A DNA stretch of 30,831 bases from Oscillospiraceae bacterium (GTDB taxonomy: Bacteria; Bacillota; Clostridia; Oscillospirales; Acutalibacteraceae), in assembly GCA_009779455.1 (NCBI GenBank), contig WREG01000001.1, positions 1-30,831 on the forward strand, in the 5' to 3' direction. Made by a program: the position numbers and the translations under genes. The notes beneath the pieces are model-generated. The model worked only from the letters and a program-made list of their open reading frames with translations, was not told the origin of the DNA and ran no database searches. Shown piece by piece: positions 934 to 6,888 of the stretch (the stretch's first letter is position 1; every line of letters starts with the position of its first letter).

Positions 934-962
934 TTGACATTTTATAAAAAACAGTATAATAT
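934..962 (+). promoter_or_regulatory. Sigma-A promoter for the putative antisense RNA
   Basis: TTGACA at 934-939, then TATAAT at 955-960 (15-nt spacer) or TAATAT at 957-962 (17-nt spacer). No ORF follows on +. Confidence 0.7.
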
Positions 963-965
963 ATA

Positions 966-1056
966 GGCAGAGGGCAATGCCGCATGAGCGGTTAGCCCGT
1001 TATGACTGGGTTAAAATAACCGCTACCATTGACGGGGGAGCGGCTATTTTCGTTTT
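966..1056 (+). ncRNA. Putative antisense antitoxin RNA of a type I TA locus (about 90 nt)
   Basis: Lies between a consensus promoter and a terminator-like hairpin (1013-1024/1039-1050 followed by CGTTTT). No ORF longer than 5 codons from its ATGs. It is complementary to the 3' end and 3' UTR of the peptide gene on the minus strand. Confidence 0.55.
1013..1056. terminator. Bidirectional intrinsic terminator
   Basis: AAAATAACCGCT (1013-1024) and AGCGGCTATTTT (1039-1050) form a 12-bp stem: fully paired with one G-U on the minus strand, one mismatch on plus. T-runs on both sides. Confidence 0.7.
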
Positions 1057-1118
1057 ATAATCAGTATGCATACAGTAGTAATATACACGATTAAGTATAG
1101 CATAACCAAATACTCCAC
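1044..1118 (-). CDS. Putative type I toxin / holin-like peptide, 24 aa: MEYLVMLYLIVYITTVCILIIKRK
   Basis: GTG start with SD GAAAGGGGGTGA close upstream. One hydrophobic helix and a KRK tail. TAG at 1046-1044 sits in the terminator arm. It has its own promoter and a convergent antisense unit. Below the ORF-track cutoff. Confidence 0.75.
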   Translation of the reverse strand: MEYLVMLYLIVYITTVCILIIKRK

Positions 1119-1200
1119 GGCCTCACCCCCTTTCGGGAAGATCAGCATAACCGCTCACGACTTAAAAGCCGCAAAATACAACAAAGCCCTCTTATGAATT

Positions 1201-1228
1201 ATTATATCACCAAAGAAAAAATTGCCAA
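1201..1228 (-). promoter_or_regulatory. Promoter of the toxin peptide mRNA
   Basis: Minus strand TTGGCA (1228-1223), 16 nt, TATAAT (1206-1201), with an extended TG. Confidence 0.6.
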
Positions 1229-1310: not shown

Positions 1311-3062
1311 GTGAAAAAGGCGTTTAGGGGCTTGGTTTCGGTTGTTTTGGCGGTTATTATTTTGTTGGCCTGCCTTCCGCTGGCCGCAAAGGCAGAAAGC
1401 GCGGTTGATTTTGCCGCGGCGGATACTTTTGTCGCCGGGGGCGGGTTCAGCATGGCTGTCAAAGCCGACGGAACCCTTTGGGCTTGGGCCTGGGACGGGA
1501 ATGACGCCGGAAAACCGCAAACCGCTAATAAAAAACCGCCTTCTAAAACAACGCCGGTTAAAATAATGGACAATGTGAAAACTGTATATTCAAATAATTA
1601 TGAATGTTATGCCATAAAAAATGACGGAACACTTTGGTTAATTGAAACTATACTTTTAAGTCCCGTGCGCTTTGAAGTCCCGGTAAAGGTTGCGGATAAT
1701 GTGAAGTCTGTATCATTCGCTGACGGTAATACATTTATGATTAAAACAGACGATTCGTTTTGGGGGTGGGGCTACAATGAAGATGGCCGACTTGGTATCG
1801 GTACGACAGAATATCAGGAATCACCCGTTAAAATTATTGATGATGTTGTATCAGTTGCGCATGGAATCGGACCGGGATACGGAAGCTCGGCAGTAAGCAC
1901 ATTTGTCATAAAAGCGGACGGAACACTTTGGGCTTGGGGAAAAAATGGGTTTGGACGAATAGGCAACGGATCGATGACGGACGTTTATTCACCGGTTAAA
2001 ATAATGGATGATGTAATTTCGGTCAGCGCGGGAAACGCCCGTATAGCCGCAATTAAAACGGACGGAACGCTTTGGACATGGGGTTTTAGCTGGATTCAAA
2101 GAGAGGGTTATGTATTTACAGGTTACTGGATCGGTTCTTTGGGAGGCGCATCCGGCGCATCCGGCAGCGAAAGCATTGGCCGCCCCACCTATGGTGCCTC
2201 ATTACCCGTTAAACTTGCTGATGACGTAAGATTTGTAGATTCTGAGCATCATGTGTGTTACTACATAAAAAACGACAAAATATTGTGGTACTGGGGCGGC
2301 GGCGGGGTTCTTTCAAAAGCGGAAGAACCTGTAAAGTTTTTAGACAATGTTATATATGTGAACGGTACATCTTCAGGTTTACGCGGATTTGCTATTAAAT
2401 CAGACAATACTTTGTGGGCTTGGGGTGATTCATTATATGAGAATAATAGTGAATTATTTGACCCGACAAAAATTGCCGACAATGTTTTAGCTGTTTCAGA
2501 ATATTCATCTCCCAGTTCACATTTCTTGTTCCTTAAAACAGACGCATCCCTTTGGGGCGCGGGGCATCATCTAAGGGGTGAATATCAACCCGGCGCGGAT
2601 TCAACCCCTGTAAAGATTATGGACGGCGTGAAACTGCCGTCACAAAAACAACCTCCCGCTATGCCCGGCAACACCATCACGCTAAATGGCAAGACTGATG
2701 CTGCCTGGAATATTGCGACACTGAGCGAACAAATCGAACTTGACGGAGGCTATATAAAAGCTTTTGATAAAGACGGGTTTGAGATTAAAGGCAGCTATGT
2801 TGGAACAGGTGCGATAATGGGGCTTTATGACAGCGAAGATAAAAAAATTGAAAGCTATGCGTTGGTTGTTAAGGGCGATGTTGAAGGCGACGGATTGATT
2901 TCATCAAGTGACGCGCGGGCCGTTTTGCGTATAGTGGCTAGGATTGACACTCCAAACAAGCCTCAAAACTTAGCCGCCGACGTGAACGGCGACGGCTTTG
3001 TTGACGCGGCCGACGCACGGCTGATACTGCGCTATGTGGCGAAACTGATTGACAAATTTTAA
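1311..3062 (+). CDS. Secreted RCC1/BLIP-II-like beta-propeller repeat protein with C-terminal dockerin type I domain
   Basis: Signal peptide MKKAFRGLVSVVLAVIILLACLPLAAKA. Eight (I/V/L)KxDxxLWxWG-like repeats, several followed by PVKIMD. Duplicated Ca-binding dockerin motif GDVEGDGLISSSDAR...DVNGDGFVDAADARLILRY. Confidence 0.85.
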   Translation: MKKAFRGLVSVVLAVIILLACLPLAAKAESAVDFAAADTFVAGGGFSMAVKADGTLWAWAWDGNDAGKPQTANKKPPSKTTPVKIMDNVKTVYSNNYECYAIKNDGTLWLIETILLSPVRFEVPVKVADNVKSVSFADGNTFMIKTDDSFWGWGYNEDGRLGIGTTEYQESPVKIIDDVVSVAHGIGPGYGSSAVSTFVIKADGTLWAWGKNGFGRIGNGSMTDVYSPVKIMDDVISVSAGNARIAAIKTDGTLWTWGFSWIQREGYVFTGYWIGSLGGASGASGSESIGRPTYGASLPVKLADDVRFVDSEHHVCYYIKNDKILWYWGGGGVLSKAEEPVKFLDNVIYVNGTSSGLRGFAIKSDNTLWAWGDSLYENNSELFDPTKIADNVLAVSEYSSPSSHFLFLKTDASLWGAGHHLRGEYQPGADSTPVKIMDGVKLPSQKQPPAMPGNTITLNGKTDAAWNIATLSEQIELDGGYIKAFDKDGFEIKGSYVGTGAIMGLYDSEDKKIESYALVVKGDVEGDGLISSSDARAVLRIVARIDTPNKPQNLAADVNGDGFVDAADARLILRYVAKLIDKF

Positions 3063-3082
3063 ATAAAGGTAGGGGGATTCAT

Positions 3083-3247
3083 GTGAAAAAATTAAAATTG
3101 TATTTGGATAACTGCTGTTACAACAGGCCTTTTGACGATCAGACTCAAATTGATTACACAAAATGGCAGAGGACATTATATGACGGCATGGAAATCGAAG
3201 AAATAAGCGGCAGGGCCATGGAAATTTACAACAATGTATATAAATAA
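3083..3247 (+). pseudogene. 54-aa chimera of a PIN-domain toxin N-terminus and the C-terminus of its usual partner; remnant of a deleted TA operon
   Basis: SD AGGTAGGGGG, GTG start. Translation MKKLKLYLDNCCYNRPFDDQTQI|DYTKWQRTLYDGMEIEEISGRAMEIYNNVYK. YLDNCCYNRPFDDQ is a PIN beta1 signature I recognise. DYTKWQR...MEIEEISGRAME matches the tail of small partner proteins that usually follow such PIN genes. Confidence 0.68.
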
Positions 3248-4574
3248 ACAGGAACCCATAAATTTTTACCATTCATTGCTGAAATTCGGCGTCAATCCCG
3301 GCCTCGAAAGGATTAACGCCCTGTTGTCCCGCCTTGGCAGCCCCCATATTGGCGGGAATTTCGTCCATGTGGCGGGGACAAACGGCAAGGGCAGCGTCTG
3401 CGCGTTTTTGTCGAATATTTTAAAATGCGCCGGGTACAAAACGGGGCTGTTTATCTCGCCGTATATAATGGAATTCAACGAGCGCATACAGATAAACGGC
3501 GAAAATATCCCCGATGCCAAACTTGCGAAAATTACCGTAGAGATCAAAGCGGCGGTTGAAAATCTTAATAAAAAAAATATCTTCCCCACCGAATTCGAGG
3601 CGGTGACGGCGGCGGCAATGCTGTATTTTAAGCGGGAAAACTGCGATGTCGCCGTGCTTGAAACGGGGTTGGGGGGGCTGTTCGACTCCACCAACGTCAT
3701 AGAAGAGCCGCTCGTGTCGGTCATAACGTCGATATCCATGGACCACGCCGAAATTTTAGGGGGCACAAACGGACTCTCCCCTATTATAAATCGAGAGTCC
3801 GTTATAGAAAAGATAGCCGCCCAAAAATGCGGCATAATAAAACCCGGCCGCCCCGTAGTCACAAACAACAGCCAAGACGAAAAAGTTTTAAAAATCATCA
3901 AAAATACGGCAATGGAAAAGAATTCCCCCCTGCTTGTCGCGGCTACAAAAGGAAAACAAGCGTTAAAATCGACAATAGAGGGCAGTTTTTACAACCTTAA
4001 AACTCTCCACTCTCCACTCTCCACTCTCCACTTAAATATCCCCTTCCCGGGCAGGCATCAGCTTGAAAACGCCATTACCGCCGCCCAAGCGGTATGTGAA
4101 TTATGGAAAAACGGCTTTGACATAAAAGACAGCCACATAGAAGCAGGGATAGAAACCGCGAAAAACCCCGCGCGTATACAGATACTTCAAAAAAGCCCGC
4201 TTATAATCCTCGACGGCTCCCATAACGAAGGGTCTGCCGCCGCCCTTGCCGAAGCCATACGCGAAAATCTGGGCGGCAAAAGGCTTTTGGGGCTTATGGG
4301 CGTGATGAAAGACAAGGATTGCGATAAAATGCTTGAAAACCTGTTGCCCCTGTTTTCCGCCCTCATAACCACCCGGCCCGATAACCCGAGGGCGCTGGCG
4401 GCGGAGGAACTCAAAGCCGCCGCGTCATACTATATGCCCCCTGAAAATATTATACCCGTTGAAAACCCGGCGGACGCTTACAGTTACGCGCTGAAAGCCC
4501 TGCCGGGATTCGACGGGTTTATAATCTGCGGTTCCCTTTACCTCGCGGGGGATATTTTAAGAATTGAGAAATAA
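3234..4574 (+). CDS. folC: Bifunctional folylpolyglutamate synthase / dihydrofolate synthase
   Basis: HVAGTNGKGS P-loop, FISPYI, PTEFE, LETGLGG, DSTNVI, DH, HQLENA, ILDGSHN, ICGSLYL. Confidence 0.96.
   Translation: MYINKQEPINFYHSLLKFGVNPGLERINALLSRLGSPHIGGNFVHVAGTNGKGSVCAFLSNILKCAGYKTGLFISPYIMEFNERIQINGENIPDAKLAKITVEIKAAVENLNKKNIFPTEFEAVTAAAMLYFKRENCDVAVLETGLGGLFDSTNVIEEPLVSVITSISMDHAEILGGTNGLSPIINRESVIEKIAAQKCGIIKPGRPVVTNNSQDEKVLKIIKNTAMEKNSPLLVAATKGKQALKSTIEGSFYNLKTLHSPLSTLHLNIPFPGRHQLENAITAAQAVCELWKNGFDIKDSHIEAGIETAKNPARIQILQKSPLIILDGSHNEGSAAALAEAIRENLGGKRLLGLMGVMKDKDCDKMLENLLPLFSALITTRPDNPRALAAEELKAAASYYMPPENIIPVENPADAYSYALKALPGFDGFIICGSLYLAGDILRIEK
3768..3803. repeat. 36-bp palindromic element inserted in frame in folC
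   Basis: AACGGACTCTC (3768-3778), 14-nt loop, GAGAGTCCGTT (3793-3803): a perfect 11-bp inverted repeat spanning exactly 12 codons (NGLSPIINRESV). Confidence 0.85.
4002..4032 (+). repeat. Heptamer tandem repeat (ACTCTCC)x4 + ACT inside folC
   Basis: Read directly from the sequence. Encodes TLHSPLSTLH. Confidence 0.9.
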
Positions 4575-4586
4575 TCGCAATATGAT

Positions 4587-5078
4587 TTATTCTTTTTGGG
4601 CTTTTTTAGCTAATTTGTTGGTATTGATAGTCCCCCGGAACACCACGAAAAACTGGAACAAAAACTCCGTCAGGCCGTTTACCGCCATTGTGCCGATGAG
4701 AACGGCATATTCCATCCAGCGGGCGTTTGGGCGCAAACCCGTGAGCGCGTTGCCCCACCATATGGACGCGGGGGTAAAAACCGCGTAATATCCCAACACT
4801 TTCAACATGGCGGCGGGAACGTTCGTCGCGGATTTAAAAGTGTAGCGGCGGTTGATTGTGAACATCCATATTACAGACAGGGCCAGCGCTATAAAATAGC
4901 TCCATCCGTAGGGCTTCCCCGCGTCCCTGAAAATATTCAGCTCCGTCAGCAGCGTAAAAGAGCCGAATTCAATAGCCCCGGCTGAACCTGCGGCTGACAG
5001 ATATTTTACCGCCATCCATGTTTTTTCTTTGGCGGTAAATTCGGTTTGGCCTTGAAGCTTTTTATCTTTTGTTTTCAT
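4587..5078 (-). CDS. GtrA family membrane protein
   Basis: 163 aa, about four hydrophobic segments, GAIEFGSF, FTINRRYTFKS, FLFQFFVVF motifs. Confidence 0.82.
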   Translation of the reverse strand: MKTKDKKLQGQTEFTAKEKTWMAVKYLSAAGSAGAIEFGSFTLLTELNIFRDAGKPYGWSYFIALALSVIWMFTINRRYTFKSATNVPAAMLKVLGYYAVFTPASIWWGNALTGLRPNARWMEYAVLIGTMAVNGLTEFLFQFFVVFRGTINTNKLAKKAQKE

Positions 5079-5089
5079 TTCAAACCTTC

Positions 5090-5707
5090 TTATTTAATAT
5101 TCGATAAATAAAAATCCTTGATCCGCGCTAAAAATTCACGGGTATTATGATATGGCATATTCATATACGGCCTTAAATCGGACGAAACCCCGTAAACTTC
5201 TTCAATCCCCAAATGTTTCGCGATATATACCGCGCGGTAAAGGTGATAGCCCTGCGTCACAATAACGGCGGATTTTATATTTAAAACATTTTTCGCGCGA
5301 TGCATGGATTCAAAGGTGGAAAACCCCTCGCCGTCCAACATTATCGCATCTTCGTCCACGCCTTTATTAACGGCGTAGTTTTTCATAGTCGTTACTTCGT
5401 CATAGCCCTCTTTATTGCCTCCGTCGCCGCTCATTAAAAGCTTTTCCGCCGCGTTTGCGCTCCAAAGCCCCACGCCGCGCAGTATCCTGTCCTCCAGCAT
5501 ATGGCTGGGCACGTCCGGCGCGTGAACCCTCGCCCCCAGCACAAGTATATATTCCGCGCCCAGCCCGGCGGCTTCTTCCGCCTTGACAATATTTTTTTTC
5601 GCGCTCTTTATGACGATAAAATTAATGGCAAAAGGCGCGGCGGCGCAAATAGTGAAAATTACTGCGCATATTATTGTAATTATTTTTAATGTTTTCTTGT
5701 TCTTCAT
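5090..5707 (-). CDS. SanA/YdcF (DUF218) family protein
   Basis: N-terminal TM helix, LVLGARV, LEDRI, LLMSGD, YDEV..MKNY, GFSTFESM, VTQGYHLYRAVY. Confidence 0.85.
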   Translation of the reverse strand: MKNKKTLKIITIICAVIFTICAAAPFAINFIVIKSAKKNIVKAEEAAGLGAEYILVLGARVHAPDVPSHMLEDRILRGVGLWSANAAEKLLMSGDGGNKEGYDEVTTMKNYAVNKGVDEDAIMLDGEGFSTFESMHRAKNVLNIKSAVIVTQGYHLYRAVYIAKHLGIEEVYGVSSDLRPYMNMPYHNTREFLARIKDFYLSNIK

Positions 5708-5753
5708 AAAATATCAAATCATACGGTCGGACATAAAGCCCGCCACTGTGGCT

Positions 5754-5785
5754 CCTAATCCCTAGTCCCTATCCCCTAATCCCCC
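5754..5785. repeat. Heptamer tandem repeat CCTA(A/G/T)(T/C)C x4 over the prfB stop codon; G-tract-rich on the coding strand
   Basis: cctaatc cctagtc cctatcc cctaatc. The minus strand reads GGGGG-ATTA-GGGG-ATA-GGG-ACTA-GGG. Confidence 0.8.
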
Positions 5786-6888
5786 GAGGACGCCTGCATC
5801 TTCAGATACGCGTTGATAAACCCGTCCAGATCCCCGTCCATGACGGCGTTTATATTGCCGTTCTCGAAATTCGTCCTGTGGTCCTTCGCTAAAGTATATG
5901 GCATGAAAACATAGGAGCGGATCTGGCTCCCCCAGCCTATTTCCTTCTGGTCGCCTTTGATATCTTCAATTTTATCAAGGTGTTCGCGCTCTTTTATCTC
6001 AATAAGCTTCGATTTGAGCATAGTCAGCGCGACCTCCCTGTTCTGGTGCTGGCTGCGTTCCACCTGGCAGGAAGCGACAATGCCCGTGGGGATGTGCGTT
6101 AGCCGCACGGCCGACGAGGTTTTGTTTACCTTCTGCCCGCCCGCCCCGCTGGCGCGGTAAACGTCCATTTTGATATCCTCCGGCTTGATATCGACTTCTA
6201 TCGTGTCGTCGATCTCCGGCATGACCTCAAGGGACGCGAAAGAGGTGTGCCGCCTGCCCGACGAATCAAAGGGGGATATTCTCACAAGCCGGTGTATGCC
6301 CGTCTCGCTTTTCATAAAGCCGTAGGCATTTGTGCCTTCAATGAGGATAACGGCGGATTTAAGCCCCGCCTCGTCGCCGTCTAGGTAGTCGAGGGTGGAG
6401 GTTTTAAAGCCGTGCCGCTCGCCCCAGCGGTGGTACATCCTGAAAAGCATCAGCGCCCCGTCCTGCGCCTCGGTTCCGCCCGCACCCGCGTGGAAGGTGA
6501 GTATGGCGTTTTTTCCGTCATATTCGCCCGTTAAAAGAGTGGCTAAGGTCTGCGCTTCAAGCTCTTTTATAAAGCTTTCCGCGCCGCTTCCGCACTCTTC
6601 GAGCATGGTTTCGTCCTCTGCTTCATTCGCAAGCTCGATAAGCGTCAGGGTATCGTCAAAATTATTTTTAAGCGTATTATAGGCCGCAAGCTTGTTTTTT
6701 AATACGCTTATCCTTTGCAGAACCTTTTGGGAATTTTTAAGATCCCCCCAAAAGTTTTCGCCCGCCGTTTCCGTTTCAAGCGTCACTATTTCTTCCGACA
6801 TTTTTTCTATGCCCAAGGCCTCGCCCAAGTGCCGGAGCTTGTCTTTTTCCCCCAGCAGGGACAGCCTTAATTCTTCAAATTGTAACAT
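5776..6888 (-). CDS. prfB: Peptide chain release factor 2 (no programmed frameshift)
   Basis: SPF motif (RISPFD), GGQ motif (SGAGGQKVN), WGSQIRSYV. Start placed at ATG 6888 behind SD GGGAGGTG. One continuous frame. Confidence 0.96.
   Translation of the reverse strand: MLQFEELRLSLLGEKDKLRHLGEALGIEKMSEEIVTLETETAGENFWGDLKNSQKVLQRISVLKNKLAAYNTLKNNFDDTLTLIELANEAEDETMLEECGSGAESFIKELEAQTLATLLTGEYDGKNAILTFHAGAGGTEAQDGALMLFRMYHRWGERHGFKTSTLDYLDGDEAGLKSAVILIEGTNAYGFMKSETGIHRLVRISPFDSSGRRHTSFASLEVMPEIDDTIEVDIKPEDIKMDVYRASGAGGQKVNKTSSAVRLTHIPTGIVASCQVERSQHQNREVALTMLKSKLIEIKEREHLDKIEDIKGDQKEIGWGSQIRSYVFMPYTLAKDHRTNFENGNINAVMDGDLDGFINAYLKMQASSGD

Follow-up and report, generated by a model that had tools for sequence, protein, structure and literature searches.

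Organization of the locus

The stretch of DNA analysed here, referred to as the window, comprises 30,831 nucleotides (nt) from an Oscillospiraceae bacterium (contig WREG01000001.1, positions 1 to 30,831), and at positions 934 to 1228 two small genes face each other across a common terminator (Table 1). The minus strand holds a short hydrophobic open reading frame (ORF) with its own promoter and ribosome-binding site, and the plus strand carries what at the level of sequence appears to be a cis-antisense RNA gene with a promoter and a terminator, these being generic traits of type I toxin-antitoxin systems. Most probably we are dealing with a type I toxin-antitoxin module, chromosomal and of the TxpA/BsrG kind, in which the peptide would be toxic and the RNA would act as its antitoxin, and the family to which it belongs is an unannotated, divergent branch of the TxpA/BsrG systems that is very common in gut Clostridia and Negativicutes.

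An earlier note on this DNA had described a minus-strand unit of promoter, leader, strong Shine-Dalgarno (SD) site, 24-residue peptide and terminator, and all of these elements were recovered in their places; the location and length that it gave for the peptide ORF likewise stand, except that the start codon is GTG and not ATG. The ends of the toxin mRNA in the window were placed from the -10 box (5') and from the U-run (3'), and a read-through form extending to about position 962 may be made as well. Between the promoter and the SD site lies a leader of about 76 nt, whose motif TGAGCGGTTA is complementary to the bases directly after the toxin stop codon. The SD site proper, GGGGGTGAGG at 1130-1121, agrees, together with its flank, with the extended consensus GAAAGGAGGTGA in 11 of 12 bases, is separated from the start codon by seven bases, and has a predicted pairing probability of 0.75, against 0.55 when the part upstream is shuffled. 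The peptide begins with M-E-Y, continues with an 18-residue hydrophobic stretch and ends in K-R-K, a layout from which we infer a single-helix membrane peptide that would insert into the membrane. A longer reading of 34 residues from an in-frame ATG at 1148 was dropped, since the homologues place both the start and the SD site at the M-E-Y position.

The antisense RNA would overlap the toxin gene by about 47 nt, covering the 3' untranslated region (UTR), the stop codon and the four sense codons before it, and an alternative -10 box for its promoter, TATAAT, is present at 955-960. The shared terminator encloses the toxin stop codon as well as the K-R-K codons and has U-runs on both strands, and its hairpin top of 14 nt is too long for a simple terminator scan, which is why such a scan of the window called no terminator. 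On the antisense strand the apical loop reads ATTGA, a U-turn motif of the YUNR type. A 27-codon plus-strand ORF within the antisense RNA (977..1060) was considered and rejected, as its ATG is lost in homologues and no SD site stands at a proper distance from it.

Table 1. Features of the window locus and of related loci in the same genome (C202, C14 and C126 denote other contigs; nt, nucleotides; bp, base pairs).
Feature	Position	Strand	Description
Putative antitoxin promoter	934..962	+	TTGACA 934-939, 17-nt spacer, TAATAT 957-962; 10/12 matches
Putative antisense (antitoxin) RNA, about 90 nt	966..1056	+	5' hairpin 972-998, linker, terminator
Shared bidirectional terminator	1013..1056	both	Arms 1013-1024 and 1039-1050; 12-bp stem (from folds)
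Toxin ORF	1044..1118	-	GTG start (1118-1116), 24 codons, TAG stop (1046-1044)
SD-sequestering hairpin	1121..1140	-	CTTCCC, GAAA loop, then GGGGGTGAGG
Leader motif TGAGCGGTTA	1148..1157	-	Inverted repeat I5; identical 10 bases in antisense RNA at 985-994
Predicted toxin mRNA	1008..1194	-	About 187 nt if ended by the shared terminator; from sequence and fold
Putative toxin promoter	1201..1228	-	TTGGCA 1228-1223, 16-nt spacer, TG-extended TATAAT 1206-1201; 11/12 consensus matches
Second intact module	C202:2380-2700		21-residue peptide starting M-E-I-I; both promoters 12/12
Decayed module	C14:1400-1800		Antisense gene, terminator and last codons (..K-R-K stop) kept
Bare terminator	C126		Downstream of a gene

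A widespread structured RNA

A DNA search of relatives returned three homologous loci of 67-69% identity, in which an ATG or GTG aligns at the M-E-Y start and the best conserved part lies 3' of the ORF. These three sequences and the window were used to build a covariance model of the plus-strand RNA, termed R1, which scores 95 bits on the window over 964-1054. R1 finds matches in 57 of the 151 genera sampled from the window's family, where a genome may contain up to 17-18 of them and copies often stand in tandem at a spacing of about 360-400 bp; in a class-wide sample of 151 genomes, 29 have matches. Furthermore, scanning one genome per species with an exact pattern yielded at least 120 stretches with the module, and among those listed are Lachnospiraceae (Butyrivibrio, Roseburia inulinivorans, Oribacterium and Pseudobutyrivibrio), Oscillospiraceae, Acutalibacteraceae, Ruminococcus, Christensenellaceae, Peptococcaceae and Desulfosporosinus, together with the Negativicutes Sporomusa ovata, S. 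rhizae and Phascolarctobacterium. Exact pattern matches also occur in bins labelled Bacteroides thetaiotaomicron, Segatella copri, Synergistaceae and Sphingobacterium (L084, L086, L110 and L180), which may reflect mis-binned contigs or transfer.

The plus-strand RNA is a conserved structured RNA, and both of its helices are backed by covariation. In an alignment of 37 distinct sequences, which was fitted to R1 and hence is biased toward the modelled structure, double-sided changes are found in 17 of the 23 modelled pairs, and the covariation score of 0.304 compares with 0.05-0.11 when the partners are slid and is not reached by any of 500 shuffles. The terminator helix (helix 3) is paired in 95% of cells and has changed on both sides in 8 of its 12 pairs, and the motif TTTGGA/TTGG in its loop is kept across the family (TTGG/TTGA, of the U-turn type). 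The proposal that a plus-strand promoter drives an RNA of about 90 nt across the last codons and 3' UTR of the peptide gene is thereby upheld, in that its elements are present in the window and the RNA is conserved family-wide.

The genome of the window, a termite-gut metagenome bin that is 83% complete, contains four related loci when the window module is included (Table 1), and the other copies were detected only at the RNA level. As regards the tblastn check of the peptide that the earlier note had suggested, it revealed no second copy in the window's own genome, and the homologues were instead reached by way of RNA and DNA searches. In the copy on C14 a GC-rich palindrome (GGGACGCCG..CGGCGTCCC), present twice, has taken the place of most of the toxin gene; what is left is an orphan antitoxin, and the copy illustrates how REP-like elements can insert in loci of this sort.

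Peptide classes on a common scaffold

A convergent ORF that is preceded by an SD site and stops at the TAA or TAG of the terminator arm accompanies 131 of 189 nhmmer hits, and when 38 R1 matches were inspected, nearly all of the 35 that were checked for an ORF had one in the same register. The 124 distinct peptides obtained are 18-53 residues long, mostly 21-35, and are hydrophobic with a lysine-rich end, although the lysine tail is partly forced, because AAA and AAG codons are the complement of the U-run of the antisense RNA. At least three classes of peptide are found on the one scaffold, namely the M-E-Y, the M-x-T-Y-E and the M-L-T-I...K-T-Q-K types. The M-E-Y type, to which the window peptide belongs, has 28 distinct members of 21-27 residues, with starts that include M-E-I, M-E-L and M-E-Q and a stop in the terminator arm; three further siblings of this type were tested and gave no Hol_Tox match. 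Three peptides of the M-x-T-Y-E type exceed the cut-off of the Pfam model Hol_Tox (PF16935), set at 23.3 bits, with scores of 32, 25 and 23.5 bits, and siblings of this type have weak NCBIfam matches to the competence inhibitor ComI (28 bits, cut-off 55) and to PepG1 (19 bits, cut-off 70). For the window peptide, which has no Pfam or NCBIfam match, the tie to known toxins therefore runs via the RNA scaffold rather than via the peptide.

The third class, with the pattern M-L-T-I...L-I-A-V...G-Y...K-T-Q-K and about 32 residues, occurs in Lachnospiraceae (L082, L090, L152, L173 and other loci), and its leader is much longer, with conserved blocks of its own (ACTGTGACC and TTACATAGAAA). Its peptides have no Pfam or NCBIfam match.

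Control features and the shared 5' domain

Throughout the family the SD site forms the 3' arm of a small hairpin with a GAAA-type loop. In 102 modules the predicted probability of SD pairing is 0.91, compared with 0.65 after the upstream sequence has been shuffled, and 94 of them lie above their own shuffles. Where a promoter is expected, 85% of modules have a promoter-like site with at least 10 of 12 matches on the antitoxin side (perfect in 43%) and 59% on the toxin side (perfect in 6%); in shuffled flanks such sites of at least 10/12 are found in 2%. With mean promoter scores of 10.9/12 for the antitoxin and 9.5/12 for the toxin, the antisense gene would generally have the stronger promoter.

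The 5' regions of the two transcripts are related to each other as well. In the window, the inverted repeats I1 (955-975 with 1186-1206) and I5 (985-994 with 1148-1157) place AGAGGGC and TGAGCGGTTA in both RNAs, and this inverted arrangement makes the 5' ends of the two RNAs similar in sequence instead of complementary. The core G[CT]GG[TC] is found in the leaders of 118 of 130 modules and in all peptide classes, and the leader consensus of the family, as represented by most of the core-bearing leaders in the alignment, is a short hairpin followed by GGCGGTTAG. When leaders are compared with antisense 5' domains, the mean local score is 20.9 for a module's own domain and 12.8 for those of other modules, and in 56% of modules the cognate domain is among the top 5%. 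By complementarity, pairing is possible between the leader motif and the eight bases from the stop codon onward, and because the toxin leader copies the antisense 5' sequence, a read-through transcript can fold its 5' end onto its 3' end. For the 233-nt read-through mRNA of the window such a fold is indeed predicted, at -85.5 kcal/mol with z = -4.96, as compared with z = -1.76 for the terminated form.

A wider notion, which we put forward tentatively and consider possible rather than probable, is that at least three unrelated-looking peptide classes share one chassis, in which two promoters face each other, the 5' domains of both RNAs match, the SD site lies in a hairpin and the stop codon falls within the bidirectional terminator, that the likeness of each toxin leader to the 5' domain of its own antitoxin is preserved from copy to copy, that the antitoxin mimics the 5' end of the mRNA and competes for its 3' extension, and that the modules together would form a superfamily spanning Clostridia and Negativicutes that is missing from Rfam and from annotation.

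Expression of a homologue

Transcription could be followed at a homologous locus of Sporomusa ovata (L172:2760-3260), which encodes a Hol_Tox-type peptide and onto which the raw reads of three stranded RNA-seq runs and the contigs of one older run were mapped. With the strands called by the usual convention (first mate antisense to the RNA), a call that is blurred by paralogues, the depth is 2600-6800 over the ORF on the toxin strand and 400-1200 over the 5' domain on the antisense strand. Toxin-strand coverage passes the shared terminator and continues, weaker, down to 2855. Many of the antisense reads run on into a different linker and then into a AAGAAATAGCCGC terminator arm, and therefore stem from expressed paralogous antisense RNAs. 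In the older run one contig begins at 2830, five bases past the plus-strand TATAAT. These data, from a single homologue, support transcription of both strands in the family.

In strain DSM 2662 the toxin strand furthermore has a sharp edge with adapter-bearing fragment ends at 3064, and a second discrete end at 2954. The former is found some 15 nt past the -10 box and is possibly a processed 5' end, and the latter lies just 5' of the antisense-covered stretch, which would fit cleavage beside a duplex.

Relation to known type I systems

The closest resemblance to bsrG/SR4 of the Bacillus subtilis SPbeta prophage (mRNA family RF01412) lies in the RNA. In both cases the SD site sits in a small hairpin, and the antitoxin promoter is the stronger one, as has been reported for SR4 relative to bsrG (PMC8167048) and as is the trend in the family described here. 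The Rfam model further contains two long-range helices, one between the leader and sequence after the ORF, the other joining the 5' end to the far 3' end, and sibling modules can be aligned to both. RF01412 scores 33.9, 30.6, 23.9 and 19.4 bits on siblings, against a gathering threshold of 55 and with E-values from 2e-5 to 0.8 (E = 2e-5 and 0.013 in the 6-kb search), and one of the siblings matched is an M-E-Y-type module that aligns from end to end. In these alignments the bracketed long-range helix corresponds to the leader motif and the post-stop bases, the outermost helix to the 5' end and the far 3' end, and the SD hairpins line up, all of which suggests that the scaffold is a distant relative of the bsrG-type mRNAs and not a member of their family. 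There are also differences from bsrG/SR4, since the window peptide with its 24 residues is shorter than BsrG and has no detectable similarity to the TxpA/BsrG group, the overlap would, for a toxin mRNA that ends at the shared terminator, be about 47 nt, far less than the extensive overlap of bsrG and SR4, and the hosts are Clostridia and Negativicutes as opposed to Bacilli.

With txpA/RatA and the TxpA family (PF16935, including EF3263 of Enterococcus faecalis) the locus shares an antisense RNA that overlaps the 3' end, a hydrophobic peptide with a basic end, and an unusually strong SD site of 11-12 bases, a feature for which txpA is likewise known (PMC8167048); moreover, sibling peptides on the same scaffold pass Hol_Tox. 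TxpA is on the other hand much longer, at 59 residues (PMC8167048), the M-E-Y peptide of the window fails both the Hol_Tox model and a profile comparison, and no RatA-like Rfam match was obtained. Fozo et al. (2010) reported 118 TxpA-family ORFs, a few of them annotated as toxins of the holin-like kind and some of them in Clostridiales, as well as an RNA of about 110 nt that overlaps the 3' UTR of EF3263 (PMC2887945), and we found no paper on the present scaffold in gut Clostridia or Negativicutes. The likeness to the 3'-overlap architecture of txpA/RatA and bsrG/SR4 that had been claimed for the locus at the outset holds, given the structured RNA with its convergent ORF, the multiple and often tandem copies, the Hol_Tox siblings, the weak BsrG matches and the reads from both strands in the Sporomusa ovata homologue.

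Two further systems invite comparison. The par locus of the Enterococcus faecalis plasmid pAD1 (Fst, RNA I/RNA II) similarly has convergent genes with one bidirectional terminator as pairing site, a short toxin with a transmembrane helix and a charged tail, and a 5' structure that limits translation, but its direct repeats give complementary 5' ends, whereas the repeats of the window are inverted. SprG/SprF of Staphylococcus aureus is alike in its antisense overlap at the 3' end and in having several chromosomal copies, and a sibling peptide has a weak match to PepG1, but this match lies far under the cut-off and the window peptide has none.

Weighing the interpretations

Several observations weigh against a type I toxin-antitoxin module at this locus. 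The window peptide, in its 24-residue and its 34-residue reading, matches no Pfam or NCBIfam model, Hol_Tox included (E = 10 for Pfam), in agreement with the earlier note, which recognised no family for it, and a comparison of the M-E-Y class with the Hol_Tox-type siblings by hhalign gave a probability of 15% over 7 columns which comprise only the lysine tail. Neither RF01412 nor any other Rfam family matches the window at E-values up to 10 in two stretches, the hits returned being at chance level. By itself the antisense RNA folds no better than shuffles (z = -1.15), the toxin promoter of the window (11/12, TG) equals or exceeds the antitoxin promoter (10/12), which reverses the family trend, and the 8-bp complementarity between leader and post-stop bases is invariant across the family, so that covariation is uninformative with regard to it. 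To this may be added the blurred strand call in Sporomusa ovata and the fact that, among public sequencing runs, three termite-gut metagenome DNA runs contain all or part of the window and no RNA run does, transcription of the window copy thus being a prediction. Finally, some peptides of the family type, YhzE-2 among them, proved non-toxic in tests, and native functions were argued (Fozo et al. 2010, PMC2887945).

The case of YhzE-2 also bears on the notion that the locus encodes a non-toxic, physiological membrane peptide, for instance a regulatory or accessory subunit resembling ComI, which is tuned by a cis-antisense RNA. Such a role could be read from the weak ComI match of the sibling peptides, and from the position of the module in the chromosome between the housekeeping genes valS and folC with no obvious mobile element. 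Against it stand several features that usually mark the control of a toxin, namely the spread of the modules in many copies (up to 18 per genome) and in tandem, decayed copies that retain only the antisense gene, SD sequestration, near-consensus antitoxin promoters, and the kinship to TxpA/BsrG-type modules. Furthermore, the interchangeability of peptide classes on one scaffold argues against a specific protein partner, and we regard a purely physiological peptide as rather unlikely.

A par/Fst-like mode of action, where the 5' end of the antisense RNA pairs with the toxin initiation region by means of repeats and the terminator provides the first contact only, might be expected from the convergent genes, the bidirectional terminator and the U-turn-type loop, which par shares (PMC8167048), and from the occurrence of a common repeat near the 5' ends of both RNAs. 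In par, direct repeats let the antitoxin cover the toxin start region (PMC8167048); I1 and I5 are inverted in the DNA, and since the 5' ends of the two RNAs are alike, carrying the same and not complementary sequence, this scheme is ruled out here. Nor does the antisense RNA contain any sequence that could pair with the SD site or the start region, and Pfam and NCBIfam gave no Fst family match. A par/Fst-like mode of action is highly improbable. We consider it equally improbable that the locus is a repeat element without gene function, that is to say a miniature-mobile-like unit of 300 bp or a mere bidirectional terminator in which the ORF is incidental. Inverted repeats do bound the unit, which is multi-copy and often found at contig ends, and the C126 copy consists of the terminator alone, but the ORF has stayed open with SD site and start at a fixed distance in 131 of 189 loci, whose identity elsewhere is only about 65-70% or lower, the peptide classes are conserved at the protein level in spite of DNA drift, promoters are retained on both sides, and the RNA is abundant in a homologue; nor were target-site duplications or a link to a transposase seen, although no systematic search was made. 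That an ORF and promoter-like hexamers have come together by chance could be entertained for an AT-rich intergenic region in which a promoter scan gave 5 sites against a mean of 2.6 in shuffles, but the possibility is virtually nil, as it is already refuted by hundreds of homologous loci with the same parts in the same order and by covariation. A chance arrangement at the window locus is accordingly excluded by the hundreds of loci with the same layout.

A proposed mode of action

If the locus is a type I module, the very strong ribosome-binding site of the toxin would be kept partly closed by the local hairpin of CTTCCC, GAAA loop and GGGGG. The two RNAs would then meet, probably through the complementary tops of their terminator hairpins, where the antisense loop offers its U-turn-type motif, and would subsequently zip into a duplex. 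This duplex might be cut by RNase III, as in txpA/RatA, or the block of the SD site might be tightened, as in bsrG/SR4, or both (for RatA and SR4, see PMC8167048). As long as the antisense RNA is present little peptide would be made, and in excess the peptide would presumably insert in the membrane and harm the cell. Under this hypothesis the two ends of a read-through toxin transcript would pair with each other, as they do in the Rfam BsrG model, and the 5' domain of the antisense RNA may compete for the same 3' stretch of the mRNA.

Surroundings of the locus

Beside the module lies a gene for a DUF4160 protein (about 545-889), which Pfam recognises with 38 bits; it overlaps a 92-codon ORF ahead of it (349-627) that has no Pfam match. 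On the other side of the module lies a gene with RCC1 repeats and a dockerin (GTG at 1311). The DUF4160 two-gene unit, the toxin-antitoxin module and the dockerin gene look like a small variable islet between valS and folC. The 81 bases upstream of the RCC1-repeat/dockerin gene, 1230-1310, have a copy of 93% identity at C140:119-199 in the same genome, and contain a hairpin at about 1256-1282 followed by a T-run, as well as promoter-like sites on both strands; an 11-base arm (I3) is common to this segment and the toxin-antitoxin terminator. Possibly this segment serves paralogous dockerin genes as a conserved leader or attenuator. The antisense RNA, by contrast, was rejected as an attenuator or riboswitch of the downstream RCC1-dockerin gene, given that throughout the family it accompanies the convergent ORF and no particular neighbour.

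Implications

Taken singly, the window locus is an ordinary kind of element, but the family that it represents is both unannotated and widespread. Of the genera sampled from the family of the window, roughly one in three has the module, which also reaches cultured Lachnospiraceae and Sporomusa, and in the searches run here neither a matching Rfam model nor a curated model naming the peptide class of the window was found. Such modules are indeed almost unannotated in the uncultured Clostridia that dominate gut, rumen and termite habitats. A covariance model would let annotators label thousands of loci and flag short toxic ORFs that hinder cloning, and the cultured carriers are tractable strains in which the question of the shared 5' domain can be addressed.

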